Numbered from the stretch's first letter, positions 4,420-61,587 are shown. The stretch: 64,000 bases of DNA from an uncultured virus (IMG/VR IMGVR_UViG_3300044657_000873) (IMGVR_UViG_3300044657_000873); one strand, 5' to 3'. The notes: generated by a model from the sequence alone, not told the origin. Numbers and translations are program-made.

Positions 4420-4430
4420 ACTAATTTTAT

Positions 4431-4443
4431 GTGTATAATACAC
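4431..4443 (+). promoter_or_regulatory. Candidate late-type promoter GTGTATAAT (here within palindrome GTGTAT-A-ATACAC)
   Basis: Upstream of SD AGGAG and ATG 4472; same 9-mer at 49311-49319 and 54598-54606 (- strand). Confidence 0.4.
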
Positions 4444-19066: not shown

Positions 19067-19170
19067 TTCTTTTTAACACTCCCAATCCATTGGAGATGCT
19101 CATTAATATCGCTACTCCTAGAACATTCCACATTATAATGTTCGTCTACTTTTTTATTTCCAGTAGTCAT
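19063..19170 (-). pseudogene. Internally deleted methyltransferase remnant
   Basis: N-terminal SDINEHL joined out of frame to C-terminal NGLGVLKRND*. Confidence 0.65.
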
Positions 19171-20167
19171 AAATCCCCTTGTGTACTTCGTACTGCATCT
19201 TCTTAGTTTCTCTTTTTGGCTGAACGATGGCCCATTTGAACATTTCATCAACCGTTTCTTCTAGATTAGTGTCGTCGCTAAAGTTCAACATCTCTTTCGC
19301 TTTGGAGTGGTCGCAAAAAGCGTGTTTAGCTTCGTGACGACCCTCTACGTGCTTCTTCTCTGCTTCAAAACCATTCTTCCAAGCTACACGTTGAACTGTA
19401 TTTGCAAGCTCATTAATTGTGTACGCCCTGTCTGCACCAATATTGAAAAGTTCATTATCGTGACCGTCGATAAGTTGCTCAAAAGGTTTCATGTAATACT
19501 TGATGTCAGAAAACGCACGAGTCTGTTCGCCATCTCCGTAGATGAGCATTGGTTCACCATCAAGGATGCGACGAATAAAAATGCCTGCAACGTTACGATA
19601 TTTGTCCCAGATATTTTGATAGATACCAACGACATTATGTGGACGAATGATATTATAGCGTAATCCGTGTTGCTGATTTGCAACTTTGATATCTTGTTCA
19701 ACAGTGTACTTTGCAATACCATAAGGGTCGATTGGTTCTGGAGTCATTTGCTCGAAAAATGGTGCGGAATGGTTTCCGTAAACAGCCATACTGCTAGTGA
19801 AGATCAGCTTTACGTTGTTGTTGATACAGGCGTTGATAACGGCAGCGGAGGCCAGAACATTGTTCTTGTAGTTGAACGTGCGGATAAAGGGCGACAATCC
19901 TTCCGCAGCATACGCTGCGAAGTGATAGCAAGCCACGACATCTCTACGGGGATCAAAGATATGCTCAAGTGATTTTGGAGTCCATGAACCATCTGTCAAA
20001 TCCAAGGGCCAGAATTCAAACCCCTCTTTAAGTTCTGATGGTAAATAATCAGCGTACCCACCACTAAGGTCATCAATACCAATGACCCTATACCCCTTGC
20101 TTAAAAGGTGCCGACTAAAATGAGAACCAAGTAGTCCTGCACATCCTGTTACTACGATTGTTTTCAC
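19154..20167 (-). CDS. NAD-dependent sugar epimerase/dehydratase
   Basis: TGCAGLLG, TSSMAVYG, YGIAK, YGDGEQTRAF. Confidence 0.9.
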   Translation of the reverse strand: MKTIVVTGCAGLLGSHFSRHLLSKGYRVIGIDDLSGGYADYLPSELKEGFEFWPLDLTDGSWTPKSLEHIFDPRRDVVACYHFAAYAAEGLSPFIRTFNYKNNVLASAAVINACINNNVKLIFTSSMAVYGNHSAPFFEQMTPEPIDPYGIAKYTVEQDIKVANQQHGLRYNIIRPHNVVGIYQNIWDKYRNVAGIFIRRILDGEPMLIYGDGEQTRAFSDIKYYMKPFEQLIDGHDNELFNIGADRAYTINELANTVQRVAWKNGFEAEKKHVEGRHEAKHAFCDHSKAKEMLNFSDDTNLEETVDEMFKWAIVQPKRETKKMQYEVHKGIYDYWK

Positions 20168-21852
20168 TTAATAACTCCCTTATTTTTTAGTACTTCGATT
20201 CGTTTTTGTTCCCAGCTATTGATTCTACCCCTTTGTGCCACCATAGAATCGTAAGCAACATGAAAATCAAAAACTTGTCTCTGATTTGCACCATCAAATG
20301 CCTGACTACATTCATTAAAGTACATACCACCAGTTGATCCCGTAGACGACTTATAAGTTAAATCTCTGATCATTCTAGATTCAAAAAATGTTCCTACCCT
20401 TGATGGATCTCTCAGAACATTTCTGATAAGGTACTGAGCCTGCATAGTTGGACTTACATTCTCCAATTGGTCATCTGGAATCTTACCTGCGGGATCTAGA
20501 ACCCGTGGAGGCGAAGCCCAAGTTTGCTCAATAGGTCTAATAGGAGCATTGTCAAAGATTTGCTCCCACTTGTTTCCACTAAGGTGCCACTGGAAGTGCT
20601 TTTCAAAGTTCTTCCTTGTTCGCTTACCTTCTGCGGCACGTTCTTCGTCAGTTTTATCTTCAAAGAAGTGACGGAAATATTCCGCTGCCGCATCATTATC
20701 TGGAACAGCACGAAGACAACCAGTCTCTAACTCTTTATAAAGTGCAGCCGGTTTGATGGGATGACCTTGCAGTTTACGAATCTCACTCTCCATAGCAGAG
20801 TAGTCAGTGCCGCATACTGGAACGCCACAAGCAGCAGCTTCTACATAGGGCAAGCCAAAACCTTCACAGTTAGCATACTGAGTGTAAAGATCAAAGAGGT
20901 TCTGGATTCGAGACAGATCCTCGTAAGACGCACCATTCTTTACGTTTGATAGAGTAGAACCCCATTTTCCAGTGTATGGAGACTGTGCTACAGCACCCTT
21001 AAACAATGATGGGAATGGCTTTTTTGTCTCAGGACAGATATAGGTGAACAAAATATGTGAAGACAGGTTGTTTTGCAAGATTAACTCTGGAATATCCCAA
21101 CCAAGATCAGGATAAGAAGTATGACAATAAAGATAATACTTCTTGCTTTCCGACTTATCTAAGAATTTCCTAAATGCTTCAAATAAATCTGGGTACAGTT
21201 TACGTCGTTGATTACGCATAACAGTTCCAATGATTTTATATTCTGGGTCAATCCCCATAGATAGCTTGTGTGCTTTCTTATCTTCAATGGGGTGATATGC
21301 TGGATGAGCAGAAGGCGGTGAAGATCCATGATACTTAATCTTACCACCAGACTGATCTGCAAGTACAGTTCCTGCCCAATCAGAGTATGTCAGACAAGCA
21401 TCAGCACCAGCATATGTTGAAATCCACTGTCGTGCTTGCGGTCTAGCATCGACCGTTGGCATAATTACCCAATCGAAATAGGGTCGAAAAGGGCTTCTCT
21501 CTGCGAAGTCGAGCATCCAAAAGTCTCGAATATCGCACACGATATCAGGCAAGAAATCTAAGCAAACATGCTCAAAAATCCATTCTCCAAATTGGTTTGT
21601 AGCGGATGATCCAAACGCCTGAAGTTCTTCCTGACTTGCCTTCGGTTCGCAGTCTGTGTTTGGCTGAACGCCGTAGAATTTCCAAGGAATATTTGCTGCC
21701 CTTGGGTCATTTCGTTGACCGTAAGCTGCCAATTCTGCAAGCTCATATTTTCCAGTGGAGTGTAGGTAATTCAAGATCTCACGAGTGTAGGTCGCGTATC
21801 CAGTGTTAAGGAAAGTAGCTTCGCTACAGAACAGAATTCGTTTTTTTCTCAT
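20164..21852 (-). CDS. Large GT4-like glycosyltransferase
   Basis: RNQRRK, EGFGLPYVEAAACG; probable start MRKKRILF. Confidence 0.85.
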   Translation of the reverse strand: MRKKRILFCSEATFLNTGYATYTREILNYLHSTGKYELAELAAYGQRNDPRAANIPWKFYGVQPNTDCEPKASQEELQAFGSSATNQFGEWIFEHVCLDFLPDIVCDIRDFWMLDFAERSPFRPYFDWVIMPTVDARPQARQWISTYAGADACLTYSDWAGTVLADQSGGKIKYHGSSPPSAHPAYHPIEDKKAHKLSMGIDPEYKIIGTVMRNQRRKLYPDLFEAFRKFLDKSESKKYYLYCHTSYPDLGWDIPELILQNNLSSHILFTYICPETKKPFPSLFKGAVAQSPYTGKWGSTLSNVKNGASYEDLSRIQNLFDLYTQYANCEGFGLPYVEAAACGVPVCGTDYSAMESEIRKLQGHPIKPAALYKELETGCLRAVPDNDAAAEYFRHFFEDKTDEERAAEGKRTRKNFEKHFQWHLSGNKWEQIFDNAPIRPIEQTWASPPRVLDPAGKIPDDQLENVSPTMQAQYLIRNVLRDPSRVGTFFESRMIRDLTYKSSTGSTGGMYFNECSQAFDGANQRQVFDFHVAYDSMVAQRGRINSWEQKRIEVLKNKGVIK

Positions 21853-21853
21853 C

Positions 21854-22171
21854 TTATTCCTTGTCCAAACATCCAAAGTCGAATTGATTAACTCTAAAAA
21901 TAATATCGTCCACAGAGTCGGTTTTAAGAACACCGTTTCTGGCAGAAGCGTGTACGGTCATTTTCATCCCCCTCTTTCCTAGTTTAGCGATGGCATCTGC
22001 ACCACTATCAAAGGCTTGGAAGGTTACGGTTGTTGGGTAACGCTTCTTTTCACCACGCCTGTTTCTTGTGTACTCGTATGTTACCAGTTTAAAAGTGCAA
22101 ACTGATGGATTCGGTTCGTAACCCACATTTGGGTCAAATAATAGATACCCTGTAAAAATACAATGGTTCAT
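21854..22171 (-). CDS. Divergent short single-stranded DNA-binding protein
   Basis: MNHCIFTGYL OB-fold start, AIAKLGKRG. Confidence 0.65.
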   Translation of the reverse strand: MNHCIFTGYLLFDPNVGYEPNPSVCTFKLVTYEYTRNRRGEKKRYPTTVTFQAFDSGADAIAKLGKRGMKMTVHASARNGVLKTDSVDDIIFRVNQFDFGCLDKE

Positions 22172-22211: not shown

Positions 22212-23777
22212 CTACATTTCGTGAATTTTATTAACAATAAACGAATTATCCTTCTCGATCTCACCGCAGAGCATGAGATTGGCACCTTCATAGAGAACAA
22301 ACTGATATTTGTCTCTTGCGTCTGGGAAAACGATAACATTGTCTAGAGAGCAAGTGGCATCTTCGATTGTCAGGAACGACATAATCCGGCCCTTTTGCTT
22401 GCTATTCTTCTTGTTAATTTTATGATTAGCTACACGTTGGACATTCGCTACAATGCAAATATCCTTGCCAAACTTTCCGTTGGCTACTTCTTGACATGTA
22501 GTGTTAGCGATTGATGCGTCGATAGCATCTGTGTATTGATACGAAATTGGACAACCCAAGAGTTTGACCTCTTCTGCAATAACCCATTGCGGCTCATCAG
22601 ACATTTCATATGGTGGATTTTTTAGCATCTCAATCTCACCGTACACAATCTGACTACGATTGGCGTTGCTACAGCCACCACCCATCTTCTTGGTAGGAGA
22701 CAGATCTTTGAAACAATCCTGTAGTTTTGACCACTTCTTTTCAGGATAGTTCTCTGTTACCCATTTTACTTCTGTCTTAGTTAGCTCACGCCAAATTAGG
22801 TATTCGTAAAGAGCTTGATTCCTAGTCACTCCAGTTGACTTGGTAGAGAAAAATCCAATACCAGAAAGTGCCTTGAGAGCCGTAGATGTGATCTTAGGTG
22901 CGATGTAAACGAGAACATCCATCCAAGTAAAATCTTTTAGAGGCTTATTGATTTCTTCTGACGTTTCGTGAATAGCTTTGATAACTTTATCACCAGTGAC
23001 ACCAGTAAGACCTTTAACGTCACGAACTCCAAACTGAATGTCATCGCCAAAGATGGCAAACTTCTCAGAGAACCTGTTTAGTTTAGGAGTCTTTACTAGT
23101 ATATTGAATAGTTTAGCTTCGTTTACTAGCTCATAGATTTCCCGATGAGTATCTTGCTTTTCATTCGCATAGTACAGATAGGACAAGAAGAACTCTTTTG
23201 TGTAGTTCGCCTTATAGTACGCAGACCAGTATGAATCGAGTGCATAGGCAACGGCGTGAGACTTATTAAAAGAATAACGAGACGACTTTTCAATCCAGTC
23301 AAAAATCTGGTTTGCAGCGTCTTGATCTACAAGTCCGACCTTCCCACACCCCTCAATAAACTGTCCACGAATCTCAGTCATGAGAGACGCTTTCTTTTTA
23401 CCAATAGCTTTACGAAGGTTATCTGCCTCCATCTCATTGAATCCCGCAGCTTTAACCGCGATAAGCATAGCCTGTTCTTGGTATACAAGTACGCCATACG
23501 TGGTCTCTAGAATTTCTTCTAGACTAGGATGAGGATAAACGACATCTTCTCTTTTATGTTTACGGTCTACGAAGTGCTGAGTCATAGACTTGCCCTCGCT
23601 AACCGCCTTCAACGTTCCGGGCCTGATGATAGCGATCAATGCCGCTAGTTCTTCAAGGTTTTCCGGTGCAACTCTTTTGGACCATGCACGACCAAGGTTA
23701 CTCTCAAGTTGAAAAAGCCCCTTAGTCAATCCGTCTTTGTATAAGGCCCAAGCCTTTGGATCATTTTTGTCAATCAT
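22212..23777 (-). CDS. dnaE: DNA polymerase III alpha, C-terminal part (fingers, HhH, OB)
   Basis: GLFQLES, IRPG, TYGVLVYQEQ, LRKAIGKK, YSFNKSHAVAY. Confidence 0.92.
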   Translation of the reverse strand: MIDKNDPKAWALYKDGLTKGLFQLESNLGRAWSKRVAPENLEELAALIAIIRPGTLKAVSEGKSMTQHFVDRKHKREDVVYPHPSLEEILETTYGVLVYQEQAMLIAVKAAGFNEMEADNLRKAIGKKKASLMTEIRGQFIEGCGKVGLVDQDAANQIFDWIEKSSRYSFNKSHAVAYALDSYWSAYYKANYTKEFFLSYLYYANEKQDTHREIYELVNEAKLFNILVKTPKLNRFSEKFAIFGDDIQFGVRDVKGLTGVTGDKVIKAIHETSEEINKPLKDFTWMDVLVYIAPKITSTALKALSGIGFFSTKSTGVTRNQALYEYLIWRELTKTEVKWVTENYPEKKWSKLQDCFKDLSPTKKMGGGCSNANRSQIVYGEIEMLKNPPYEMSDEPQWVIAEEVKLLGCPISYQYTDAIDASIANTTCQEVANGKFGKDICIVANVQRVANHKINKKNSKQKGRIMSFLTIEDATCSLDNVIVFPDARDKYQFVLYEGANLMLCGEIEKDNSFIVNKIHEM

Positions 23778-23784
23778 TTAAATC

Positions 23785-23874
23785 TCAATAATCTCCTAAA
23801 ATACTTTCTTCTAGATTAAATTTTGGTATAGACAAAATATATCTTTTAATTTCCTCTAATTCAATGTCGCTCAT
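23785..23874 (-). pseudogene. 29-aa ORF or gene remnant
   Basis: ATGA overlap with the exonuclease stop; MSDIELEEIKRYILSIPKFNLEESILGDY. Confidence 0.35.
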
Positions 23875-24545
23875 ACGAACAATTTCCCATCGGCAAATGC
23901 TTTTTCAAATTTCATATTTCTGTAGACTGCTCGTCTGGACTTTTGCAGTTTGATCCAGATATTTGCTGTATCCTTAACGTCTTGGAGAGCATCGTGAGCG
24001 TTCTCACTGGATAGTCCCATTCTTTCTCGCAAGCTATCCATACTAATAGACTTAACATTTGGATCTCCTTCTGTCCACATCCACACATCGTCCATTACGT
24101 CAATTTTATAAATCTGATGAAAGAGTTTCTGGCAGCATCGCTTGTCATCATACGGTCCATACTGTTTGCACAGCCTGTCAACGATCTTCATGTCGTATCC
24201 GAGAATGTTGAATCCGCAGGGAATGGGTGCGAAGTAGGGCGTGCCCTTCCAATTGTACTTATTGACAAACGTACAGAACTTCTTCCAAACGCCCTTTGGT
24301 AGTGGTGCCTTGGCAAGTTGTTCTCTTGTTTGCCCCGTTACTTTCAACGCTCCTTCTTCAATAGGGTCAACACCAGCGGCAATAGCTTCATCATCATCTA
24401 TAATGGGACGCATCATACTATTAAATGAACCCTTTAGCTTAAAGTTCCTACCGTCAAGTGCGATAGCAGCAATCTGTGTAGGTTGGCAACGGAGCGGGTT
24501 ACGCCCTCCTGTTTCAAAGTCGAACACGACGATATCCCGATTCAT
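23871..24545 (-). CDS. DEDDh 3'-5' exonuclease (epsilon-like)
   Basis: FDFETGG, GFNILGYD, AHDALQD. Confidence 0.88.
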   Translation of the reverse strand: MNRDIVVFDFETGGRNPLRCQPTQIAAIALDGRNFKLKGSFNSMMRPIIDDDEAIAAGVDPIEEGALKVTGQTREQLAKAPLPKGVWKKFCTFVNKYNWKGTPYFAPIPCGFNILGYDMKIVDRLCKQYGPYDDKRCCQKLFHQIYKIDVMDDVWMWTEGDPNVKSISMDSLRERMGLSSENAHDALQDVKDTANIWIKLQKSRRAVYRNMKFEKAFADGKLFV

Positions 24546-24735: not shown

Positions 24736-26367
24736 TTATGCTGATTTTCCCAGCAATTCTTCAATATACATCAATTTATCGAGGAGATTCAACCCAAGAA
24801 GGTCAAACTTAACGTGACCTAGTGCTTCTAGATCGTTCATTTCCAATCCCGCAATCTTTTCGCCGCCACTCTTTTGGTTCACCATAGGGCAAACTTTGTA
24901 TAGTGGTGCGGAAGAGATAACAACGCCAGCAGCGTGTTTTCCCTGTGTCTTAAATGTACCTTCAATATCAATGGCCTGCTGGAAGTATTCTGCAAAGTCT
25001 CCCTGCAATCTACCCTCATCGTCGATATGGCAGTAGTCCATAAGGTCGTCTGCACGATTCTGTAATGTCCAGCGAATGATAGAGCGATCTTCTTCGTCCA
25101 TCTGTGAAAGTTGGTCAGAAATGGCGGCTTCGTCTGGAATGTACTTTGTGATCTCGTTCATTTCGGCAAAACCACAAGCATCATTTACACGAAGAACTTC
25201 TTTCATCGCACTTCGCCCTTGCAATCTACCAAACGTGAGCATCTGACTAACATTGTTAGATCCGTACTTCTCTTTGAGTCTAGCGATGATCTCATCACGT
25301 TTATTTCCGGGAACGTCCATATCAACATCAGGTAAAGAGATGTGATCTTCTGTATTACGACCCTCATTGTAGAATCGTTCAAACAGCAGATTAAACTCGA
25401 TGGGGTCAATCTCTGTAATACCAACTAGGTAGGAAATAAGGCAACCGGCAGCAGATCCACGGCCCGGACCTACCATCCAGCCCTGCTCACGACACCAATT
25501 TAAAATATCCCAAACGATGAGAAAATACCCAAACAGATTTGCTTTTTCAATAACGGCAAACTCTTTGTTAAATCTGTCGCCATAGGTTTTTCTATCTAGC
25601 TCACTCTTGATCTTGTCATTTAGTAGTGTCATCCAACCTTGTCTTGCGAGGTGACGTAGGTAGTCGCCCTCGCTTTTATAATCAGACGGTATATCAAACT
25701 TGGGAAGGATGGGCTTGCTAAGAATATTAAAATTCTCTACCTTGTTTAAGATTTCATCAAACTCATCCATACGAGGGTCGTCGATAACTAACTTTGCAGA
25801 CTCTAACTTGTCTTTAAGGTAAAAATCACTAGAATCAAAGAATACAGAAAGGTCATCTTGTTCCACGCCATTCTTCTTTACTTTATGTAGAGTGGTCTTT
25901 AGTTTTCCACAAAGCACAATCCTGTGCAAATCTGCTTGGCTTTTATCTGAGTAAAAAGTTTTTAAGAAAGCATCAGACCATTGGTAAAAGTCATCGCCAG
26001 TAATTGGAGACAGAGCCTCTGAATTGGCAATGCAAATAAGGTTGCCTTGTCGTGCTAGGCGAACCATAGTGCCTCGATCCTCATTACCGTCTGTATCAAT
26101 TGTAGAGACAATCTCGATGAGGTTCAGCCATCCCTCATGGTTTTTGGCAAAAAGAGCAAAGCCATCGAAAGAACAACCAATAATAGGTTTGATATCATTG
26201 TCGATGCAGGCTTTATAGAAAGATACAGCACCACTGATTGTTTTGTAATCAGCGATGCCACATGCGGGGTAAGAATTCTGCTTGCACTTCTTAGCAAGCT
26301 CATTTGGCTTGGAAAAGCCGTACTGTAGCGAATAGTGGGTGTAGTTCAGTAGCGGAAACCACTTCAT
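24736..26367 (-). CDS. dnaE: DNA polymerase III alpha, N-terminal part (PHP, palm, thumb)
   Basis: THYSL, GPGRGSAAG, FERF, PDVDMD, GKHAAG, VKFDLLGL. Confidence 0.93.
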   Translation of the reverse strand: MKWFPLLNYTHYSLQYGFSKPNELAKKCKQNSYPACGIADYKTISGAVSFYKACIDNDIKPIIGCSFDGFALFAKNHEGWLNLIEIVSTIDTDGNEDRGTMVRLARQGNLICIANSEALSPITGDDFYQWSDAFLKTFYSDKSQADLHRIVLCGKLKTTLHKVKKNGVEQDDLSVFFDSSDFYLKDKLESAKLVIDDPRMDEFDEILNKVENFNILSKPILPKFDIPSDYKSEGDYLRHLARQGWMTLLNDKIKSELDRKTYGDRFNKEFAVIEKANLFGYFLIVWDILNWCREQGWMVGPGRGSAAGCLISYLVGITEIDPIEFNLLFERFYNEGRNTEDHISLPDVDMDVPGNKRDEIIARLKEKYGSNNVSQMLTFGRLQGRSAMKEVLRVNDACGFAEMNEITKYIPDEAAISDQLSQMDEEDRSIIRWTLQNRADDLMDYCHIDDEGRLQGDFAEYFQQAIDIEGTFKTQGKHAAGVVISSAPLYKVCPMVNQKSGGEKIAGLEMNDLEALGHVKFDLLGLNLLDKLMYIEELLGKSA

Positions 26368-26413
26368 AGTTATCCTTTTCAATTTTTAATTCAATGTTTT
26401 GCTCGACTACCCT

Positions 26414-29483: not shown

Positions 29484-30746
29484 TTATCCTACCCCTACGT
29501 GGATATCTGTTAATATATTCTTCTCTTCACTACCAGTAATAGGCATTGGTCTTCCATTAATGCCCATCCAAGTGTTGTTTTTGTGGATTCCCACATGGTT
29601 TAACACAGTCCATCTTAAATCTATAGGACTGCACTCACCGTTTTCTGGAAATTCGGCGTTTGCACTGGAGGTTCCAATTACACGGCCCAAGTCGTATCCT
29701 CCACCAGCAAACATTAAGGGGACACTACCACTCCAGTGGTCACGCCCTGCGTTACCGTTTATTTTTGGCGTTCTACCAAACTCTGTGGCTACAACCAGAA
29801 GAGTGTTCTCAAATAAACCCCTGACCTCTAACTCGTCCATAAGTAGGCCAACATATCTATCTAGAGTTACCTGTCTAGTATTTAACGAATTTACTATATT
29901 ACTGTGCATATCCCAGCCACCATACTGGATATTTACAAACTTGGCACCGTTCTGTATAGCTCTGACTGCGGCTAAGGCATCCTTGCCCAACTGGTCATCC
30001 TTAAATGTACCGTATTTAGAATCTTCTTCAATTCTAAAAGTTTCAGCCGCTTTGCCGGTTATAGCCGTGAGAGCTTGATTTTGGAACTCTCTCCAGTCTT
30101 CTCCTCGTCCTTTGAAGGGAGAATGTTTCTCTACTAAGTCTAGCAGACCTTTTCTCTCCATGAATTTTTCCTTAGACATCTTTAACTGGAGATCGCCTAC
30201 GCCTTCTCTATTGGCTTCGTAGCCCATATATTTCTGACCAAGAAAAGCTGCTCCATCCCCATCAATTTTGTTCATCTTAATATAGGTGGGTAGACCATGA
30301 GGTTGAGATACTGGCCCGTAATAGCCAGCAATCATAGCTCCGTAACTAGGATAATTCTGAACAGTACTGCCTTGGTTTCTCTCGCCACCAACAACCCAAT
30401 GAGTAGCAGTTTGATGGTTAGAATCTTTATGAGCGAAACTTCTGACAATGTTAATTTTATCAGATCTTTTAGCTACTTCCTTGAAGAGTCCACCTATCTT
30501 TACCGTTGGAATTTTAGTCTCTATATGACCAGTGGCAGACCGTCTTTCTACTGTGGAATTTGGGATGGGATTAAATGTCTCGATGTGAGTCGCTCCTCCA
30601 CCCATCCACAGAAAGATTACGCTTTTGTCGTTTTTAGTAATTTTGGGGGAATATTCATCAGCATAAGAAACAGCGATATTGTCGCTCGCTAGATATGCTC
30701 CACCAAGAAAACTAGTTCCGTAAGTTAAAAAATCTCGCCTTTTCAT
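29484..30746 (-). CDS. Tat-exported DUF1501 family protein
   Basis: MKRRDFL, VIFLWMGGG, GGWDMH, EFGRTPKIN, GRDHW. Confidence 0.9.
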   Translation of the reverse strand: MKRRDFLTYGTSFLGGAYLASDNIAVSYADEYSPKITKNDKSVIFLWMGGGATHIETFNPIPNSTVERRSATGHIETKIPTVKIGGLFKEVAKRSDKINIVRSFAHKDSNHQTATHWVVGGERNQGSTVQNYPSYGAMIAGYYGPVSQPHGLPTYIKMNKIDGDGAAFLGQKYMGYEANREGVGDLQLKMSKEKFMERKGLLDLVEKHSPFKGRGEDWREFQNQALTAITGKAAETFRIEEDSKYGTFKDDQLGKDALAAVRAIQNGAKFVNIQYGGWDMHSNIVNSLNTRQVTLDRYVGLLMDELEVRGLFENTLLVVATEFGRTPKINGNAGRDHWSGSVPLMFAGGGYDLGRVIGTSSANAEFPENGECSPIDLRWTVLNHVGIHKNNTWMGINGRPMPITGSEEKNILTDIHVGVG

Positions 30747-44856: not shown

Positions 44857-44885
44857 ATTATAGTCTACGAAGCCGGTTTTGTCAA
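44857..44885 (-). promoter_or_regulatory. Consensus sigma70 promoter for nrdA
   Basis: TTGACA-17-TATAAT with GTAGAC before the -10. Confidence 0.85.
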
Positions 44886-44896
44886 GAGGAAAGTAC

Positions 44897-44941
44897 AAAA
44901 AAACCTCTCTAAAGTAGATATCGTTCCACTAAAGAGAGGTA
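44897..44941 (-). terminator. Terminator closing the membrane/protease operon
   Basis: ACCTCTCT...AGAGAGGT stem with U-run on - strand. Confidence 0.65.
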
Positions 44942-44947: not shown

Positions 44948-45121
44948 TTATTGTTTGATAGAGAGTTCCATTCCGTCACCAATGTCGATAATCAAATAGT
45001 TTTCGCCGTTACGTTTTACGAACTCAACCTTATCCATCATTCTTTTCGCCTTGTCAATATCTTTACGCTCAATGCCGTACTTGTCCATCATTCTGTCAAG
45101 CAATACATCTATTAAGCTCAT
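44948..45121 (-). CDS. Small hypothetical protein
   Basis: MSLIDVLL..., ATGA overlap with upstream gene. Confidence 0.5.
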   Translation of the reverse strand: MSLIDVLLDRMMDKYGIERKDIDKAKRMMDKVEFVKRNGENYLIIDIGDGMELSIKQ

Positions 45122-45597
45122 TGATTGGCACTCCAAGCTACTGCTTCGAGGACATCTACAAGATCTTGACGCTTACTATCGGTCAAAGGCTGATTCTCTA
45201 AACCAATGGAATTTTGGACTGCATATTCTACAGCGTCACCGAAACCCCTGTATTTACCGGCAAAGTCTGTATCAAAATGCAGGATGCCTGCCATTACATT
45301 AAAGTTGGCAAACTGGCCCGTTGTTTTGATGATCTTATCGTCATCTCTTAAAACGTCTGCTAGTTCTAGGAAGAAGTAAGAAACAAGCTCTCTATCTTCT
45401 TTTGAAAAATCAATCTTGACAATGTCATCGACTAATTCTTTATTCTCTAAAGATGGCTCATTCACTTTTACGTCTGGATCGTCTGGCACAATATTGATAA
45501 TATCTACATTGTTTTTAACCCACTCAAATGCAGGTTCGCCAAAAAGTGCAATCACACACAGAACAGCAGCTAATATCGTTCTGAGTTGATTACTCAT
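45118..45597 (-). CDS. Membrane-anchored/secreted protein
   Basis: N-terminal hydrophobic ILAAVLCVIALFG, Pro linker, helical domain. Confidence 0.6.
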   Translation of the reverse strand: MSNQLRTILAAVLCVIALFGEPAFEWVKNNVDIINIVPDDPDVKVNEPSLENKELVDDIVKIDFSKEDRELVSYFFLELADVLRDDDKIIKTTGQFANFNVMAGILHFDTDFAGKYRGFGDAVEYAVQNSIGLENQPLTDSKRQDLVDVLEAVAWSANQ

Positions 45598-45865
45598 TCT
45601 TTACCTCCTGAATCACAAATAACGGGAAGATTTCTTTGAGTTCTCTGGCAGCATCCTCCATGCCCTGAGCCTCACAGCAATCACATAAGTGTTCCCAACA
45701 CTTAACAACATCAACCAGTCCGTCGCAAATATTCACATGCTCAGGTGCGGGTGGCACAGGTGGCGACGTAGGGGCAGATGAAATAAGCCCTTTAAACTTC
45801 TCAAAAACCACTGGTGCAACTAAAAAAATAGCAGCAGCTAGCATGACCCACTGAAATGTATTCAT
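45590..45865 (-). CDS. Small membrane protein with Pro linker and Cys-rich domain
   Basis: WVMLAAAIFLVAPVV; PTSPPVPPAP; four Cys. Confidence 0.6.
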   Translation of the reverse strand: MNTFQWVMLAAAIFLVAPVVFEKFKGLISSAPTSPPVPPAPEHVNICDGLVDVVKCWEHLCDCCEAQGMEDAARELKEIFPLFVIQEVKNE

Positions 45866-46201
45866 CTACTTTCCTCCAATCTCTTCTAAAATATTGTTCA
45901 ATTCTTTATCCGACAAATTTTTGCCAACATCAAGAAAAGCTCCGTACATCGTATTTCTACGGGAGCCTCCTTTGACCTGTTGTTTTCTGATCTCTCTTTT
46001 GAGAAAGAGTTTAAATAACCAAGAGGGATTCCGCAGTTGCTCACGAACCTTACTTTTGCTTCTGCAACTCCACCAAAGTTTTACAAGATTGGTGATGATG
46101 CTGATAATAATTGAGATAGTCATTGGGTCTAGCCCAAAGTTCTTATCTTTGCCTGCAACGTGAGAAGATATTCTTGTTGCTACTTTGTTTAAATCATTCA
46201 T
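45866..46201 (-). CDS. Small membrane-associated protein
   Basis: DPMTISIIISIITNLVKLWWSC followed by a basic segment. Confidence 0.6.
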   Translation of the reverse strand: MNDLNKVATRISSHVAGKDKNFGLDPMTISIIISIITNLVKLWWSCRSKSKVREQLRNPSWLFKLFLKREIRKQQVKGGSRRNTMYGAFLDVGKNLSDKELNNILEEIGGK

Positions 46202-46779
46202 AGTGCCTTACCCAATTGTTTAATCATGACCTCTGCACTCACTCCACCGACATTTCTTTGAAGTGGGGTATCCAAATTATCTGCATCTAACAATATAATT
46301 GTAGGGTACGAAGTCACTTTATAGTACGAGAAATACTTCTTATGATCTTCGTTGTCTGCATCGAACACAAAAAGTTTTACATTTTTATCTTTTAGAAACT
46401 CAATCATTTTTTCATCAGGCCAAGTATTCTTAATCATCTGCTGGCATGGCCCACACCATTCAGCACCAAAATGATATACATTGTATTCTGGTTCGATATC
46501 AGCAGCGACAGGTTCTTTTCCATCTTTCTCCTTGCAGGCTGGACAGCCGGGGCAAAGCGTTCTGTGACCATCACCATGAGTAATATAACCAGAGCCATCA
46601 CATTGTTCTACATCGTCTTCATCTGGAATTGTATTTGGAGTGTTCATTACAGCAACAGCTAAACGTGTCGCCTGATAAGCCCTAATTTTCTTAGCGTGGT
46701 CGTAATCTTGTGCGACAATACCACTACAACCAACAACCAGCAAACATAATGATAGTGCAAATACTGAGTTTCTATACAC
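46198..46779 (-). CDS. Lipoprotein thioredoxin
   Basis: GTG start after GAGGAG; signal ending LVVG-C; CDGSG...CPGCPAC; WCGPC; TSYPT. Confidence 0.8.
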   Translation of the reverse strand: MYRNSVFALSLCLLVVGCSGIVAQDYDHAKKIRAYQATRLAVAVMNTPNTIPDEDDVEQCDGSGYITHGDGHRTLCPGCPACKEKDGKEPVAADIEPEYNVYHFGAEWCGPCQQMIKNTWPDEKMIEFLKDKNVKLFVFDADNEDHKKYFSYYKVTSYPTIILLDADNLDTPLQRNVGGVSAEVMIKQLGKAL

Positions 46780-46789
46780 TTTTATCTCC

Positions 46790-47713
46790 TCATAAATATT
46801 TATTGAATCCGTAGTCGGGAAGTTTTCTCGCGGGGAAACCATTTACATTACTAAAGACCCAAGAGCCTCTTGATCCCAACATACCTCTAGCATCTTTTTC
46901 TCTGATCCAAAAGCTACCGTCTGGTTGTCCGTGAACCTTGGGACCATTATTCCATTTACCCCAACTGTTTTGAACCAAAAATAAGGTTTCGTTATATCTT
47001 TTTCTCGTATCGTCGCAAGCAATCCAAGCCATAGCATGTGACCAACCGTCCGATCTCTTTGCTATACCTTTAGAATCTCGCCTACTAGAAAAACCATAAC
47101 CAGAACACACTGATATGCCGTAACCATTAGCTAAAGCATCTCTGGCCTCTTCTACTGTAGAGATCAAAGATATGGTCTCTACTTGGTGTCTCTGAGCTTC
47201 AGTCTTGTAGATACTATCGGGAATGCGACCTTGTGACCCAGTGTTTGAGTTATAGACAGACAAATCAATGTCGCCATAATCTTTTCTTAAAAGAATTCCA
47301 CCCTTCTCGTAGACGTATTTAGCGGCTCCAGAGCAAGTCATCCCTTGACCTCTGTGACCTCTACTTTGATAGATAGCCTCCGTTGCACTTCTAACAATGA
47401 AATCTTCTGACTCACCCTTGATATCAATTTCAACTGCTCTGGTTAAGTCTAATGCATTTCTAGTTGCATGACTTACACAGTCGCCAGTTGTTTGCCGCTC
47501 TGCTGGGCCAAACCCCTTATCGAATTTGAGCAAAGAAAGAAAGGGCAGGGAAAGTTTACCTTCCCCTGCTCCAAATAGCTTATAAGCAGTAGTACCAAAA
47601 AGTGGGGTCTTTAACCGGCCTAACAATTCTGCGGTTTCTTCTGGGTCACATACAGCACCCTCAAAACCGTTGCGATATGCGTTAAGCAAATTGCGTGCGG
47701 TGTTAAAGTCCAT
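46790..47713 (-). CDS. Papain-like (C1) cysteine peptidase
   Basis: QTTGDC (oxyanion Q, catalytic C), SHAM (His), QNSWG (Asn), GSFWI. Confidence 0.85.
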   Translation of the reverse strand: MDFNTARNLLNAYRNGFEGAVCDPEETAELLGRLKTPLFGTTAYKLFGAGEGKLSLPFLSLLKFDKGFGPAERQTTGDCVSHATRNALDLTRAVEIDIKGESEDFIVRSATEAIYQSRGHRGQGMTCSGAAKYVYEKGGILLRKDYGDIDLSVYNSNTGSQGRIPDSIYKTEAQRHQVETISLISTVEEARDALANGYGISVCSGYGFSSRRDSKGIAKRSDGWSHAMAWIACDDTRKRYNETLFLVQNSWGKWNNGPKVHGQPDGSFWIREKDARGMLGSRGSWVFSNVNGFPARKLPDYGFNKYL

Positions 47714-47730
47714 TATTTACTCCTACTGTC

Positions 47731-47949
47731 TTAATCTTTCGGTGAAGCGTCTTTGAGCCACTTGATCGCGGTATCAAGACCAAGAGCGATGATTGGAACA
47801 ATAAGCGGAGCATAATGTCCAATGTCAAGAACATGCAAGTTTTCTGCAATAACAGTCAGTGCTGCTGCACCGCCCACCAAAATAGCGGTTTTGACGACAC
47901 CAGAAATGTCGCTCAAGTTTAAAGTAAATCTTTTACTGCCTTTGTTCAT
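47731..47949 (-). CDS. Holin-like protein with two TM segments
   Basis: 72 aa, two hydrophobic stretches, charged termini. Confidence 0.6.
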   Translation of the reverse strand: MNKGSKRFTLNLSDISGVVKTAILVGGAAALTVIAENLHVLDIGHYAPLIVPIIALGLDTAIKWLKDASPKD

Positions 47950-48530
47950 TTCTCATTCTCCTGTAAATAAAGATGAATTAAAAATCCTTCATGAATACCT
48001 TTACCAAGTTTGTAAGGGTGTCCAACAAAATGTATGGGCCTTCCATGAACGGAGATGGTTTCAATGTCAATCTTCCTGCACATTTTCAAACAAGAGTCAA
48101 ACTCTTTCAGAAAATGCTCTCTTCGATCATCTTCGATAACCGTTAGCCAATCGAATTCGTCTTTACAACCACCGTTGTCGTTTGTTAATTCTAAAAATGC
48201 TTCGTTGCACCAAGTTAATCTACCCTTAATATCTGTCTCAAAAAGCGGACTCTCGTTATAGTGAAGGGCGGCTTTCGATCTTTGATCTAATACCTTTTGT
48301 CTAGTTTCTATTCTATCACAAGCCTTTTTCAATGAATTTACAGTATCTTTTAAAGATTTGCCACTATTAGGCGTAACTTCTGCTTTAATAATGCTAATTG
48401 ATTTCTTTACTTCTTCTTCAAATCTTTGAAATGACTTGACAAAGCTAAAGATTTTGTACAAAAAACCTAACACTCCGATGAATGCACCGATAAGTGTTGC
48501 TATTGCTCCTGCAAACTCCGGCGTAACCAT
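47946..48530 (-). CDS. TM + coiled-coil + PAS domain protein
   Basis: N-terminal TM; PNSGKSLKD; FETDIKGRLTWCNEAF...WLTVIEDDRRE (PAS-like). Confidence 0.65.
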   Translation of the reverse strand: MVTPEFAGAIATLIGAFIGVLGFLYKIFSFVKSFQRFEEEVKKSISIIKAEVTPNSGKSLKDTVNSLKKACDRIETRQKVLDQRSKAALHYNESPLFETDIKGRLTWCNEAFLELTNDNGGCKDEFDWLTVIEDDRREHFLKEFDSCLKMCRKIDIETISVHGRPIHFVGHPYKLGKGIHEGFLIHLYLQENEK

Positions 48531-48549: not shown

Positions 48550-48582
48550 AAACCTAGCCCCCATCTCTGAGGGCTAAGTTAA
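48550..48582 (-). terminator. Terminator or attenuating hairpin
   Basis: AACCTAGCCC...GGGCTAAGTT. Confidence 0.6.
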
Positions 48583-48597: not shown

Positions 48598-49236
48598 TTA
48601 TGCTTCAGGAGCTTCTTTTGATTTGAAGTCATCCTGAATTGGGTTCGCTGAACCATCTCTGTAAACAAACTCACCGGGAATAGCACGAGTGGTATTCGCA
48701 GCAGAGTCAGCAGAGTTGGTTGCACCACCAGCAACAGCGGGGTCGATGTAATTCTTCTCAGATCCACCACCAGTAATAGTTCTGTAAGAATTGATACCCG
48801 AAGCTGGAGCAGCCAATATATCAATAGTCATATCACCATAATCACGGGTCGTTTCAAGACTAGCGATATTGCCACGAACTGGGTCAGGACCGGCTTGACC
48901 ACCAATCAAGGTTGTGTTAGCAACACCACCAAGAGTAGTGGAAACATTACCACCCTTAACAACCCACTCAGTAGTACTAGCCTGATAAGCGATTGTGCCA
49001 CCAGAAACAGCTTTACCAACACCAACCCTGTCAGTGTATTGATTACCTGTTCCATCGTTAGCAACAACCTTCGAACCAAAGGTTTGGCCTTGATCGTCAG
49101 CAATCTCGGCCAAGGTAAGGCTCTTAGTCATGACACCGGCAGCGTTTGAGCCACCACGAATGACGGTTCCACCGTCACGGACTTCTCCGTTACCAACAAC
49201 TTCATCGCCAGCACCGGAAGGACGTACAGTAGCCAT
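48598..49236 (-). CDS. Probable virion structural protein
   Basis: Gly/Thr/Ala-rich, strong SD, own promoter candidate and terminator. Confidence 0.5.
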   Translation of the reverse strand: MATVRPSGAGDEVVGNGEVRDGGTVIRGGSNAAGVMTKSLTLAEIADDQGQTFGSKVVANDGTGNQYTDRVGVGKAVSGGTIAYQASTTEWVVKGGNVSTTLGGVANTTLIGGQAGPDPVRGNIASLETTRDYGDMTIDILAAPASGINSYRTITGGGSEKNYIDPAVAGGATNSADSAANTTRAIPGEFVYRDGSANPIQDDFKSKEAPEA

Positions 49237-53290: not shown

Positions 53291-53319
53291 ATTATAGTCT
53301 ACAAACCGCGATTTGTCAA
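53291..53319 (-). promoter_or_regulatory. Consensus sigma70 promoter
   Basis: TTGACA-17-TATAAT with GTAGAC. Confidence 0.85.
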
Positions 53320-53860: not shown

Positions 53861-53878
53861 AGTAACCTCCAAAAAAAG

Positions 53879-53950
53879 TAAGCGGTCTAGGAATCGAACC
53901 TAGCCACGAGGATTTGGAATCCTTGTCGCCACCTTGGAACATTACCGCTT
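53879..53950 (-). tRNA. tRNA-Trp (CCA anticodon), 3' CCA not encoded
   Basis: Acceptor AAGCGGT/ACCGCTT, anticodon loop TTCCAAA, T arm CTAGG-TTCGATT-CCTAG; weak D arm. Confidence 0.85.
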
Positions 53951-53956
53951 GTAAAA

Positions 53957-54197
53957 GCCAGTTTGGATAATAAGGTACTGGCAAGACCCCAGACAGCTTA
54001 CGCCGCCAAAGCAAAACAAGGTTCTGCAATTAAATTTTAGTCAGCTTTTTACGAGGCCAACTGACCAACCTCGACATGCAGTAATTACCTACGCAACCAG
54101 TCGATACCATTACGCCCCCTTGGTTTGGTAATTGGAGGCGGCGAGAGTCGAACTCGCGTCCTGCGTTGTTTCAATAACAACGTCTACATGTTTAGTC
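53957..54197 (-). ncRNA. ssrA: Circularly permuted two-piece tmRNA
   Basis: Acceptor piece (~54197-54133: TAAACATGTAG...GAC, T arm, CGCCTCCA) precedes coding piece (54119-53957: GGGGGCG, PK1, tag AEPCFALAA*, PK2); G3:U70 pair. Confidence 0.9.
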
Positions 54198-54596
54198 TTT
54201 CTTGCGAAAGAACTTCTTTATTTGCTCAGACATGGTTTTCATTTCATCCTTGCCCATATCTGTCAATGTATAATAAAAGTTACCGTCCTCTCCAATTAAC
54301 TGGTCTACATATCCTGTTTTCATTAATTCTAAAATATCGTCTTGTACCTCATTCTGAAATGCCTGCATCTCTTTTTTAAGAAAACTTAGCGTTAGAGGTT
54401 CTTCATCAAGCTCAAACTCAAATACGTCATAAGCTATTTCGCTAGACACTTTGGGATCTTGATGTGTATTTGCTTCTAATTCATTTACATATTCCAATGC
54501 TTTTTCAAGTGTTGAGCATACACCAACTGGTTCTACTGAAAAGTCAGTGACAACTTTACCCTCTGCCGCAATCGAAACGATAACATATACTTTCAT
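54192..54596 (-). CDS. Hypothetical acidic protein
   Basis: 134 aa; stop codon overlaps the tmRNA acceptor piece. Confidence 0.6.
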   Translation of the reverse strand: MKVYVIVSIAAEGKVVTDFSVEPVGVCSTLEKALEYVNELEANTHQDPKVSSEIAYDVFEFELDEEPLTLSFLKKEMQAFQNEVQDDILELMKTGYVDQLIGEDGNFYYTLTDMGKDEMKTMSEQIKKFFRKKD

Positions 54597-57321: not shown

Positions 57322-57350
57322 ATTATAGTCTACGGTTGCTGATTTGTCAA
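57322..57350 (-). promoter_or_regulatory. Consensus sigma70 promoter, possibly leaderless transcript
   Basis: TTGACA-17-TATAAT with GTAGAC; ATG 6 nt downstream of the -10. Confidence 0.85.
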
Positions 57351-57827: not shown

Positions 57828-57855
57828 TTCTCAACTCCATAATAATATCCATTAA

Positions 57856-58951
57856 TTAGCTTGACTCCAGACCTGATTTTGGAAGCCCCAAATGCACCAG
57901 TCTGACCTGATTCCCTACCTGATTCTCGACCTGATCCCTGACCTGATTCCTGACCTGATTCTCGACCTGACGCCTGACCTGACGCCTGACCTGACGCCAG
58001 ACCTGATCCCAGACCTGATCCCAGACCTGATACAAGACCTGACCCCTGACCTGACCCCAGACCTGATTCTCGACCTGATCCCAGACCTGATTCCTGTTAT
58101 TTTTCATTAGTTTGATCCCTGACCTGATTCCTGACCTGACGCCAGACCTGATTCTCGACCTGATCCCAGACCTGACCCCAGACCTGATCCACGACCTGAC
58201 TCACGACCTGATCCACGACCTGATTCCTGACCTGACGCCAGACCTGATTCTCGACCTGATCCCAGACCTGACCCCAGACCTGATCCCTGACCTGACTCAC
58301 GACCTGATTCATGACCTGATTCCTGACCTGACGCCAGACCTGATTCTCGACCTGATCCCAGACCTGACCCCAGACCTGATCCACGACCTGACTCACGACC
58401 TGATCCACGACCTGATCCCAGACCTGATTCTCGACTTGACCCACGGCCTGATCCCAGACCTGACCCCTGACCTGATCCCAGACCTGATCCAAGACCTGAC
58501 CCCAGACCTGATTCCTGACCTGATTCCTGACCTGACTCCAGTTATTTTTCATTAGTTTGATCCCAGACCTGACCCCCGACCTGACGCCAGACCTGATCCA
58601 CGACCTGATCCACGACCTGACCCCAGACCTGACCCCTGACCTGACCCCTGACCTGATCCCAGACCTGACCCCAGACCTGATTCTCGACCTGACCCCTGAC
58701 CTGATTCCTGACCTGATTCCTGTTATTTTTCATTAGTTTGATCCCAGACCTGACCCCAGACCTGATTCTCGACCTGATCCCAGACCTGATTCCTGTTATT
58801 TTTCATTAGTTTGATCCCTGACCTGATTCCTGACCTGACGCCAGACCTGATTCTCGACCTGATCCCAGACCTGACCCCAGACCTGATCCCTGACCTGACT
58901 CACGACCTGATTCATGACCTGATTCCTGACCTGATTCCTGTTATTTTTCAT
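57856..58951 (-). repeat. 12-bp tandem repeat (NNG NNT CAG GTC) organised as five overlapping mini-ORFs
   Basis: Units 58796-58951, 58723-58806, 58542-58733, 58097-58552, 57856-58107; each begins MKNN, four end QTNEK*. Confidence 0.9.
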
Positions 58952-58982
58952 TTTTAATCCGGCCCCACTGTTTTGTAGAAAT

Positions 58983-60360: not shown

Positions 60361-61587
60361 TCATACTAGTCCCTCAATTATTTTTCCGCCATTTGCAATC
60401 TTCATAGGTCTTCCTCTTTTACTTATATAAGTAGTATCAGCATCAATACCAAGTGCTGCAACTGTACTAGCCATGAGATCTTGTGCGGTATACGCTAGAC
60501 CATCAATCATCTTTCCATCTTTAGTCGTTGCACCAATAGCTCGACCCCCTTTGAATAAACCTCCAGATACAAATGCACTCCATGTCGCTGCCCAATGGTC
60601 ACGACCAGCATTCTGATTAATTCGAGGAGTTCTACCAAACTCTCCCATCATCATTATAGCAGTTGTATCCCACATGTCAAGCCTCTTTAGGTCAAGAATG
60701 AGAGTTGATACTACTTTATCTAATTCGGGAAGTTTAGTGTTTAAAGTATCATGAGTCATTTGATGAAGATCCCATCCTCCAAATCCAATCTCAACAAATG
60801 GGACTCCTTGCTGTAGAAGACGACGAGCAATCAATGCACTATTGCCAAATCCAGTAGCTCCATATGCGTTTCTTACTTGTTGAGGTTCCGTATTAATTTT
60901 CAACGCATTCATCTGCGGGGAAGTATTTAGTTTAATAGTTTTGTCATACAGATTCTTATGGTCTATAGGAAGTTCCCCACGATTAGAATCAATAAAATTT
61001 TTCTCTAAAGTAGAAAGGAATTCTAGGCGATTTTTATTTAGATTTCCTCCCAAATTATTAATTTGACCATTAGAATTTACTAAAAAGGGATCATAAGTAG
61101 TTCCTAAGAATCCACCTCCAATACTTCTTGTGCCTACAGAAAAGAATGCCGGAATCTCAAGATCTTTCCTACTCCTGCCAAGCTCATAAGATACTACAGA
61201 CCCCAAAGATGGATGAACAACTGTAGGATTAGGTTTAAATCCCGTGTGTATATGATATGTCCCTCGCATGTGATCAGCTTCACCAGTAGACATACTTCTT
61301 ACGACAGAGAAATCTTTTCCAAGTTTTGCCAGTTCAGGCATGAGTTCACTAATCTGGAAATCCCCTGCCGTATTGATCGGCATATGAGGACCACCCTCTT
61401 TAGTTCCGGGTTTCAAATCCCACATATCAATAGTTGGTGGACCGCCTCCCAACCAAATCAAAATTGCTCCCTTGCGGTCATTACGAAGTTGTGATGAGTT
61501 TTTAACAATGGTTTGACCAAAGGAAAGCGATGTGGAAGCAAGAGAAGCAAGTCCACCAGCGTGTTGTAAGAAGTGTCGTCTATTCAT
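60361..61587 (-). CDS. Second Tat-exported DUF1501 family protein
   Basis: MNRRHFL, ILIWLGGGP, GGWDLH, GEFGRTPRIN, GRDHW. Confidence 0.92.
   Translation of the reverse strand: MNRRHFLQHAGGLASLASTSLSFGQTIVKNSSQLRNDRKGAILIWLGGGPPTIDMWDLKPGTKEGGPHMPINTAGDFQISELMPELAKLGKDFSVVRSMSTGEADHMRGTYHIHTGFKPNPTVVHPSLGSVVSYELGRSRKDLEIPAFFSVGTRSIGGGFLGTTYDPFLVNSNGQINNLGGNLNKNRLEFLSTLEKNFIDSNRGELPIDHKNLYDKTIKLNTSPQMNALKINTEPQQVRNAYGATGFGNSALIARRLLQQGVPFVEIGFGGWDLHQMTHDTLNTKLPELDKVVSTLILDLKRLDMWDTTAIMMMGEFGRTPRINQNAGRDHWAATWSAFVSGGLFKGGRAIGATTKDGKMIDGLAYTAQDLMASTVAALGIDADTTYISKRGRPMKIANGGKIIEGLV

Follow-up and report, generated by a model that had tools for sequence, protein, structure and literature searches.

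A tightly packed block of eight genes on the minus strand of the uncultured virus IMGVR_UViG_3300044657_000873 (positions 48530-44948) encodes a papain-fold cysteine peptidase, a lipoprotein thioredoxin and several small membrane proteins, and is considered here as a candidate lysis module. The window, meaning the whole 64,000-nucleotide stretch that was analyzed, is part of a large uncultured marine phage and carries nearly all of its genes on the minus strand. These include genes for replication (a split DnaE-type polymerase, a helicase, a primase, a UvsX-like recombinase, PhoH and MazG) and for nucleotide metabolism (class I ribonucleotide reductase (RNR), dCMP deaminase and thymidylate synthase), plus many glycosyltransferases, two DUF1501 genes and one sigma factor.

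The original prediction for this locus, made by reading the sequence, described eight genes between two terminators, and this layout was borne out: all eight open reading frames (ORFs) are on the minus strand, stops and starts overlap or abut (ATGA, TAGATG), and a terminator lies on each side. The genes are called g1 to g8 here, in the order of transcription. The thioredoxin gene (g4) and the last gene (g8) are both present as predicted, but their starts had been misplaced, as g4 likely begins at GTG 46779 and encodes 193 rather than 214 amino acids (aa), and g8 begins at ATG 45121 and encodes 57 rather than 62 aa. Upstream, an intrinsic terminator-like hairpin (48551..48580, minus strand) with a 13 base pair (bp) stem, then UUUUCCUU, a U-rich run (-20.5 kcal/mol, z -4.56), ends the preceding 212-aa gene and stands 20 nucleotides (nt) before g1; downstream, the terminator (44898..44940, minus strand) comprises a hairpin at 44940-44903 and a U run (-20.2 kcal/mol, z -6.76). 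Neither hairpin was equaled in folding by any of 200 shuffles.

Relatives of the peptidase were found in 335 IMG/VR stretches, the best 80 of which were used (contigs up to 173 kb). One of them, G003 (172,984 bp, direct terminal repeats, CheckV 100% complete), was compared whole; its large terminase shares no more than about 26% identity with that of any cultured phage. Partner genes were counted with hidden Markov models (HMMs) made from domain parts, at loci with at least 3.5 kb on either side of the peptidase gene, which gave a close set of 41 loci and a distant viral set of 44 loci whose peptidases are about 35-45% identical to that of the window. Transmembrane (TM) segments were predicted by hydropathy. 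No cultured relative emerged by tblastn of the window peptidase and of one distant homologue against 50,697 phage records, a collection from which near-identical records may be missing.

The peptidase and its thioredoxin partner

The third gene, g3 (46790..47713, minus strand), encodes a 307-aa C1/papain-fold cysteine peptidase with the catalytic set Q74, C79, H226 and N249-S250-W251, and no signal or TM segment is predicted in it. This protein matched no Pfam family at E<=0.1 (Peptidase_C1 included) and no PHROG or NCBIfam family, and phmmer found no match among PDB sequences. The family comprises 1526 proteins at E<=0.001 among 2896 candidates, with 1397 representative clusters at 50% identity, and across 38 diverse homologues Q74, C79, H226 and W251 are invariant while N249 and S250 are at least 90% conserved. 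When a profile of these 38 homologues was compared with PDB sequences, both catalytic segments aligned with caricain and cathepsins (caricain E 1.6e-5). The AlphaFold2 model of g3 (predicted local distance difference test (pLDDT) 91.2, predicted template modeling score (pTM) 0.91) has the two-lobe papain fold, with a helix that begins at residue 79. Foldseek ranked xylellain (3OIS) first for this model (E 1.6e-9), followed by procathepsins, the top matches all being C1A enzymes (248 matches at E<=0.001). The VIA comparison with 3OIS gave Z 21.3 and a root-mean-square deviation (rmsd) of 2.9 A over 232 aligned residues, and 49 further listed entries had Z of at least 17.5. Because mature papains align from about residue 49, the N-terminus of g3 resembles a short piece of a pro-region; at the other end, the protein closes with a conserved tail, LPDYG..(F/Y)L. 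Judged from the model, g3 is a true but distant C1-type enzyme of an unclassified branch, distant because it has no Pfam match and because caricain is reached only at the E-value given above. Assignment to the CHAP or NlpC/P60 enzymes was ruled out by the fold match to C1A enzymes and by the family scans. With a family HMM at E<=10, neither the window nor G003 yielded a second, catalytically dead paralogue.

The gene that follows, g4 (46198..46779, minus strand), encodes a 193-aa lipoprotein thioredoxin composed of a signal with a VVGC lipobox, a Cys-rich module and a thioredoxin domain. Its GTG start lies 7 nt after AGGAG and the product begins MYRNSVFALSLCLLVVGC, which includes the lipobox; the sequence agrees with the pattern [LVI][ASTVI][GAS]C, and not all relatives keep this Cys, many having a plain signal or an anchor. 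The Cys-rich module reads C60-x-G-S-G...HGDGH-x-T-x-C76-P-G-C. The thioredoxin domain scores 39.5 bits to Pfam Thioredoxin_2 (cut-off 27) and 34.9 bits to Thioredoxin (cut-off 23.5), and W108, C109, P111 and C112 of its WCGPC motif are conserved in 28 sequences.

Gene neighborhoods show a genuine and deeply conserved pairing of the protease with the exported thioredoxin, in support of that part of the original prediction. The Cys-rich module of g4 lies directly 3' of the peptidase in all 41 close loci and in 24 of 44 distant ones, the thioredoxin domain lies 3' of it in 23/41 and 35/44, and a Pfam scan of 131 neighbors in 12 distant loci placed a thioredoxin-fold gene within three genes 3' of the peptidase at seven of them. 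Partner genes are always on the same strand as the peptidase, and the downstream proteins follow a common plan: a signal, anchor or lipobox, a helix of the EGYxAFxV type, the motif C-x-C-x-G-(S/T)...HGDGH-x-T-x-C, and then WCGPC, WCAPC or WCPPC. Complex prediction with the peptidase and the periplasmic part of g4 (score 0.00, mark 0.32) speaks neither for nor against binding.

Since phage thioredoxins often serve RNR, it was also considered that g4 is an electron donor for the adjacent reductase and that its link with the peptidase is accidental; nrdA and nrdB are directly downstream of the cassette, and phrog_22 is filed under nucleotide metabolism. However, g4 carries a lipoprotein signal together with an exported Cys-rich module, thioredoxin follows the peptidase at loci where no RNR is nearby (including the Tat-type loci described below), and it is fused to the peptidase in some relatives, all of which make this explanation highly unlikely.

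Membrane partners and routes to the periplasm

Immediately before the peptidase gene, g2 (47731..47949, minus strand) encodes a 72-aa holin-like protein with two Gly/Ala-rich TM segments (residues 15-31 and 40-56), a basic N-terminus and a charged C-terminus (KWLKDASPKD tail). Its start overlaps the stop of g1 (ATGA) and it ends 17 nt before the peptidase gene, so that it has the layout of a class II-like holin: small, with two TM segments, N-in/C-in, with a charged C-terminus and adjoining a hydrolase gene. Members of the g2 family are found 5' of the peptidase in 28/41 close and 28/44 distant loci. When loci are sorted by the type of peptidase, the g2 family accompanies signal-less peptidases at 66 of 91 loci (36/51 close, 30/40 distant) and peptidases with twin-arginine (Tat) signals at none of 13, a pairing that would fit a holin role for g2.

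Information on where the peptidase family acts comes from its relatives. Twin-arginine signals (RRDFL, RREFL, RRDAL and others), each followed by a hydrophobic stretch, are present in 20 of 80 distant homologues, and the arginine pair (R3, R4) is invariant in 14 aligned sequences. In addition, 13 of the 150 best representative homologues combine an N-terminal TM segment, a domain like that of g7 (E 1e-5 to 3e-13) and the peptidase in one chain; within the same 150, four have a C-terminal thioredoxin domain and four a Cys-rich module. These single-chain fusions tie g7, g3 and g4 together on the periplasmic side, and the unfused partner proteins are all exported. The Tat signals, the membrane-anchored fusions and the exported partners are three independent lines of evidence that this family acts in the periplasm, and they support the earlier proposal on this point. 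The window peptidase carries no twin-arginine signal and, having no signal at all, needs another way to reach this compartment.

The missing signal and TM segment could instead mark g3 as a cytoplasmic protease that functions in host takeover or processing and is merely located beside unrelated membrane genes, and the conservation and inteins of the family, described below, resemble those of replication enzymes. This possibility is nevertheless improbable, because it does not accommodate the Tat signals of distant homologues, the membrane-anchored fusions with g7-like and thioredoxin modules, or the invariant exported partner downstream.

The fused domain corresponds to g7 (45118..45597, minus strand), a 159-aa type-II signal-anchored protein (TM 4-20) encoded at 41/41 close and 4/44 distant loci. 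Its predicted periplasmic part is modeled with confidence as an all-helical bundle (pLDDT 87.6) that has no Foldseek match in the PDB at E<=0.001, and it is taken to be a partner of the peptidase because relatives fuse a g7-like domain to the N-terminal side of that enzyme. The original prediction had assigned spanin-like disruption of the outer membrane to the three membrane proteins of the cassette, and this part is not supported. It is true that g7 is type-II anchored and helical and that g4 is a lipoprotein, yet no spanin PHROG is matched, g4 is a 193-aa enzyme, and g7 is seen fused to the peptidase in relatives.

The remaining proteins of the cassette are small. The first gene, g1 (47946..48530, minus strand), encodes a 194-aa protein with a TM segment (8-24), a coiled region and a PAS-like domain that is predicted to be cytoplasmic by the positive-inside rule. 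The window copy matches PAS_8 below threshold (E 0.0027, 18 bits against a cut-off of 21.8) and phrog_1009 on residues 7-86 (E 3.5e-5), and homologues at loci L101, L117 and L123 have PAS-family matches, that of L101 being above the cut-off (PAS_9, 35.3 against 27). A PAS protein is encoded 5' of the peptidase at 25 of the 41 close loci and at 9 of the 44 distant ones. Genes g5 (45866..46201, minus strand; 111 aa, one weak TM segment at 24-40, very basic C-terminal half) and g6 (45590..45865, minus strand; 91 aa, TM 4-20, a Pro-rich linker and a small helical domain) are present at 35 and 41 of the 41 close loci, respectively, and at none of the 44 distant ones; the five Cys of g6 are not conserved in G003. 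The last gene, g8 (44948..45121, minus strand), encodes a 57-aa soluble protein without a TM segment, its start overlaps the g7 stop (ATGA), and it is found at 34/41 close and 0/44 distant loci.

A candidate lysis module

To our knowledge, every well-studied tailed phage opens its host with a peptidoglycan-cutting enzyme. The cassette was predicted to encode no muramidase or amidase, and searches with Pfam, PHROGs and NCBIfam agree with this and extend it to all window proteins, among which no muralytic family was found. The same is true of the part of G003 that does not match the window (Pfam on 109 proteins, PHROGs on 91). A wider search for canonical endolysins used six-frame scans of five records of the window lineage (G001-G006), four of them at least 94% complete, and found Phage_lysozyme, Amidase_2, SLT, GH25, M23, M15_4, NlpC/P60 (PF00877) and CHAP (PF05257) in 0/5 records each; the scan for GH108 (PF05838) was uninformative, as its control gave no signal anywhere. 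Seven of these families were also absent from the Tat-type records scanned (0/12 or 0/6), three of which are 100% complete, and Pfam detected no muralytic domain among the 131 neighbors in 12 distant loci. A canonical endolysin was therefore found neither in the window nor in the complete relatives that were scanned.

Gene order in the relatives provides another line of evidence. At all 18 Tat-type loci with at least 4 kb of downstream sequence, a gpA-type large terminase is encoded 1-3 kb downstream on the same strand and RNR is encoded at none (0/18), whereas at non-Tat loci a gpA-type terminase is downstream in 4/50 and RNR in 23/50. Lambda lysis genes are classically just upstream of the terminase.

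A further possibility is a virion or prohead maturation protease; the original prediction had named virion maturation as an alternative. Papain-like proteases mature the capsids of some eukaryotic viruses, and a conserved Gly/Thr-rich 212-aa protein is encoded upstream of the cassette. However, G003 has a ClpP-type protease of its own for head maturation (phrog_94, E 3.9e-38), encoded beside the terminase, so the C1 enzyme is not needed for capsid maturation; the C1 peptidase also lies far from the structural module, and export signals in relatives do not fit capsid assembly. A role in head maturation is for these reasons very improbable.

The cassette shares several features with canonical holin-endolysin(-spanin) cassettes such as lambda S-R-Rz/Rz1. 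In both, the gene for a two-TM protein immediately precedes that for a soluble hydrolase acting beyond the inner membrane, genes for exported proteins or lipoproteins follow, and Tat-type relatives carry the block immediately 5' of the large terminase gene. Unlike lambda-type cassettes, this one encodes a C1 papain-fold protease as its hydrolase in place of a muramidase, amidase, transglycosylase or M15/M23/NlpC/CHAP peptidase; matches to holin or spanin families are absent, the lipoprotein is a 193-aa thioredoxin rather than a short o-spanin, and the block lies among early/middle genes. P1 Lyz is a signal-arrest-release (SAR) endolysin controlled by thiol-disulfide chemistry. The system described here would resemble such signal-bearing or SAR endolysins in placing a catalytic-Cys enzyme in the oxidizing periplasm, in having some members that are exported before lysis and in including a thiol-disulfide component. 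It differs from P1 Lyz in that the redox component is a separate (sometimes fused) thioredoxin-fold protein, no isomerization switch is evident, and the enzyme gets out through the Tat system, on a membrane anchor or, presumably, with the help of the holin-like protein.

Among C1 enzymes, g3 shares with xylellain (the Xylella fastidiosa C1A enzyme) and with papain zymogens the Q/C/H/N set and a short segment that aligns with the end of the pro-region, but it is only 18% identical to xylellain, is encoded by a phage together with exported partners, and has the extra conserved LPDYG tail. The C1 fold also relates it to Cwp84 of Clostridioides difficile (4CI7; VIA Z 18.2, rmsd 3.9 A, 236 residues aligned), a C1 protease that acts on a proteinaceous surface layer and processes the S-layer protein; unlike the present module, Cwp84 is a Gram-positive housekeeping enzyme that carries a lectin-like domain, lacks a thioredoxin partner and is not involved in phage release. 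Endolysins with CHAP or NlpC/P60 domains, with which phages cut wall peptides, also belong to the wider papain-like superfamily and are cysteine-histidine hydrolases. Neither family was found in the five scanned records, however, and the g3 model matches C1A enzymes. Endolysins of the CHAP and NlpC/P60 types often need reducing agents in vitro, according to one report (PMC8586454), and the available part of a survey of papain-like enzymes mentions phages only under CHAP, NlpC/P60, Amidase_5 and pseudomurein endoisopeptidases (PMC10318531). A literature search with subscription journals outside its coverage found, in the portions of text available, no C1-protease/thioredoxin lysis module, no Tat-exported phage lysis protease and no account of planctomycete phage lysis.

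Taken together, these data tip the balance slightly toward the cassette being a non-canonical, holin-gated lysis (egress) module in which a papain-family protease would replace the endolysin. The protease would be made in the cytoplasm without a signal and would reach the periplasm once g2 permeabilizes the inner membrane. There it would act beside the membrane-anchored helical g7 and the lipoprotein g4, whose WCGPC domain could make or keep Cys79 reduced in the oxidizing periplasm, reduce disulfide-bonded targets in the envelope, or both. The substrate would be an envelope polymer of a probably planctomycete host, either peptide links of peptidoglycan or structural envelope proteins, and accessory or regulatory functions would fall to g1, the TM-PAS protein, and to g5 and g6, both small membrane proteins.

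Several observations weigh against a lysis module, and the first of these concern the holin candidate and the nature of the hydrolase. The g2 protein matches no Pfam, PHROG or NCBIfam family at E<=0.1 and no described holin family, its TM segments are only weakly hydrophobic, and its link with signal-less peptidases is confounded by phage lineage. We know of no C1 peptidase that cuts peptidoglycan, and a Pfam scan found a wall-binding domain in none of 21 long homologues of g3. Furthermore, most ORFs of these phages are unannotated, so an unrecognized muralytic enzyme could exist.

The position and promoters of the cassette belong to the same side of the argument. It lies within the replication and nucleotide-metabolism region, on the early/middle-gene strand and with a terminator on each flank. 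An early-type consensus, TTGACAAA-N15-TATAAT, occurs in perfect form three times in the window (44857-44885, 53291-53319 and 57322-57350, minus strand), 5' of replication and nucleotide genes, and nine times with up to two mismatches, against 1.5 expected; one of the perfect sites is the nrdA promoter (perfect TTGACA-17-TATAAT, 44885-44857, minus strand) directly after the downstream terminator. A motif without a -35 element, TTTTGTGTATAAT, precedes structural genes in G003, and its core is found with one mismatch at 4429-4439 of the window (plus strand), before a plus-strand gene at 4472. Neither motif is present before or inside the cassette and a terminator stands in front of it, which gives no support to late expression; low-level readthrough of that terminator may, as a guess, be one route to expression.

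Conservation of g3 is the third such point. The protein is 70-86% identical to its copies at the 80 viral loci, most cassette neighbors being well lower in most loci, and its 79% identity to the G003 copy places it sixth of the 59 proteins matched (80 tested), a level of conservation like that of ribonucleotide reductase. The five ranked higher are both RNR subunits, SSB, the exonuclease subunit of the polymerase and a small unannotated protein (5373-5705), and the other seven cassette genes are 30-49% identical to their G003 counterparts. Lysis enzymes are not usually under constraint this strong. Relatives of g3 also contain inteins at the catalytic Cys and about two residues past the catalytic His, as judged from HMMER stretch coordinates, from intein, Hint or LAGLIDADG Pfam matches in four of eight long homologues, and from the peptidase ORF at locus L108. 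Insertions at catalytic residues make this peptidase an unusual intein host, and they too are unusual for lysis enzymes. Intein-bearing homologues include P0121, P0125, P0126, P0138 and L108:4678-6708, some of them with LAGLIDADG endonucleases and some with two inteins.

Part of this evidence would suit non-lytic remodeling of the envelope, in which the protease and thioredoxin, made early or in mid-infection, cut or reduce surface or periplasmic proteins of the host while the cell stays closed, for example to remove a receptor for superinfection exclusion or to process exported proteins encoded by the phage. Such a function would account for a block placed among early/middle genes on the strand that they use, preceded by a terminator and lacking a late motif, for the strong conservation of the enzyme, and for the fact that this protease family normally cuts proteins; relatives also carry rIIA/rIIB-like and many membrane genes, and therefore have envelope functions other than lysis. 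Remodeling would leave unexplained, however, why seven complete or near-complete (at least 94%) records from two lineages have no recognizable endolysin, why the peptidase precedes the terminase at every Tat-type locus counted above, and why the g2 family is restricted to signal-less peptidases, and for these reasons it is regarded as rather unlikely.

Host range, significance and neighboring features

The planctomycete connection made in the original prediction gained support from bacterial genomes. When the alignment of Tat-type peptidases was searched against one genome per prokaryotic species, 22 loci were recovered, 14 of them in Planctomycetota (Pirellulaceae/Pirellulales, Planctomycetaceae, Isosphaeraceae including Tundrisphaera, and Planctomicrobium twice) and the remainder in Bacteroidota, Balneolaceae, Novosphingobium, Acidobacteria and metagenome-assembled genomes (MAGs). 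Several of these bacterial-genome loci are phage-like, with a portal or terminase gene nearby. In addition, a DUF1501 protein of the window shares 52% identity, along its whole length, with a Planctomicrobium protein and 45% with a Tundrisphaera protein, and is therefore likely to be a host-derived auxiliary gene and a clue to the host; DUF1501 matches number 48-79 in Planctomicrobium and Tundrisphaera genomes, with two weak ones in a Mucilaginibacter genome and none in two others. These similarities make a planctomycete a likely host.

One phage contig in a Planctomycetaceae MAG encodes, two genes after the peptidase, a fusion of a signal, a trypsin-like domain and a thioredoxin domain, and a trypsin-like gene lies 5' of the peptidase at another viral locus. 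These extra secreted proteases and the redox partner fit a protein target. It is conceivable, if doubtful, that phages infecting planctomycetes, and those of some other aquatic bacteria, escape from the host along a non-muralytic route, in which the protease and the periplasmic thioredoxin dismantle a disulfide-bonded protein layer or its tethers. Along such a route, the protease would reach its site of action with the aid of a holin-like protein, through the Tat system or on a membrane anchor, and the glycan and peptide bonds of peptidoglycan would not be the target. Protein rather than murein would then be the decisive barrier to lysis in these hosts.

Abundant lineages of uncultured aquatic phages without a recognizable muralytic enzyme have retained a papain-type protease linked to an exported thioredoxin, and three apparent routes lead this protease to the periplasm. 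If this module is indeed the lysis engine, it would add a new class of enzyme and a redox partner to phage lysis, offer a direct handle on what holds the long-disputed planctomycete envelope together, provide a marker gene from which their hosts could be predicted, and account for the failure of automated annotation to find an endolysin in these phages.

Other features of the peptidase family and of the surrounding DNA are also of interest. In Mucilaginibacter and Balneolaceae chromosomes (L179, L180 and L187), signal-less homologues of the peptidase stand alone among cellular genes, with no thioredoxin or phage genes nearby, and these copies may be domesticated. The Gly/Thr-rich 212-aa protein (48598-49236, minus strand) matches no family; its gene separates that of the phage sigma factor from the cassette and runs up to the strong terminator. 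Members of this protein family are encoded 5' of the peptidase at 31 of the 41 close loci and at 27 of the 44 distant ones. A shared promoter motif 5' of this gene was considered and dropped, as the motif did not recur in the window.

Both DUF1501 (sulfatase-like) genes (29484-30746 and 60361-61587, minus strand) are absent from G003. In the minus-strand segments 22212-23777, 23871-24545 and 24736-26382, the DnaE-type polymerase is split in two and a polymerase exonuclease-subunit gene lies between its N- and C-terminal halves, which cover positions 248-616 and 626-1055 of phrog_405. A minus-strand block at 7664-21933 encodes sugar-nucleotide epimerases/dehydratases, at least five glycosyltransferases and methyltransferases, and suggests that the phage modifies sugars of a surface or of DNA.

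In G003 (L087:3255-3803 and L088:4226-7437), a lipid desaturase gene lies between the ClpP-type head protease and the terminase, and an rIIA-like (HATPase) and rIIB-like gene pair is also found. The window encodes a transfer-messenger RNA (tmRNA; 53878-54222, minus strand) with the tag peptide AEPCFALAA, which overlaps or abuts a tRNA-Trp, and the counterpart region of G003 has several tRNA-like stretches. Finally, long arrays of an imperfect 12-nt unit (ATCAGGTCNGGG-like) at 57828-58096 and 58553-58982 flank a 151-aa low-complexity ORF (58097-58552), and local GC content rises to 0.46.

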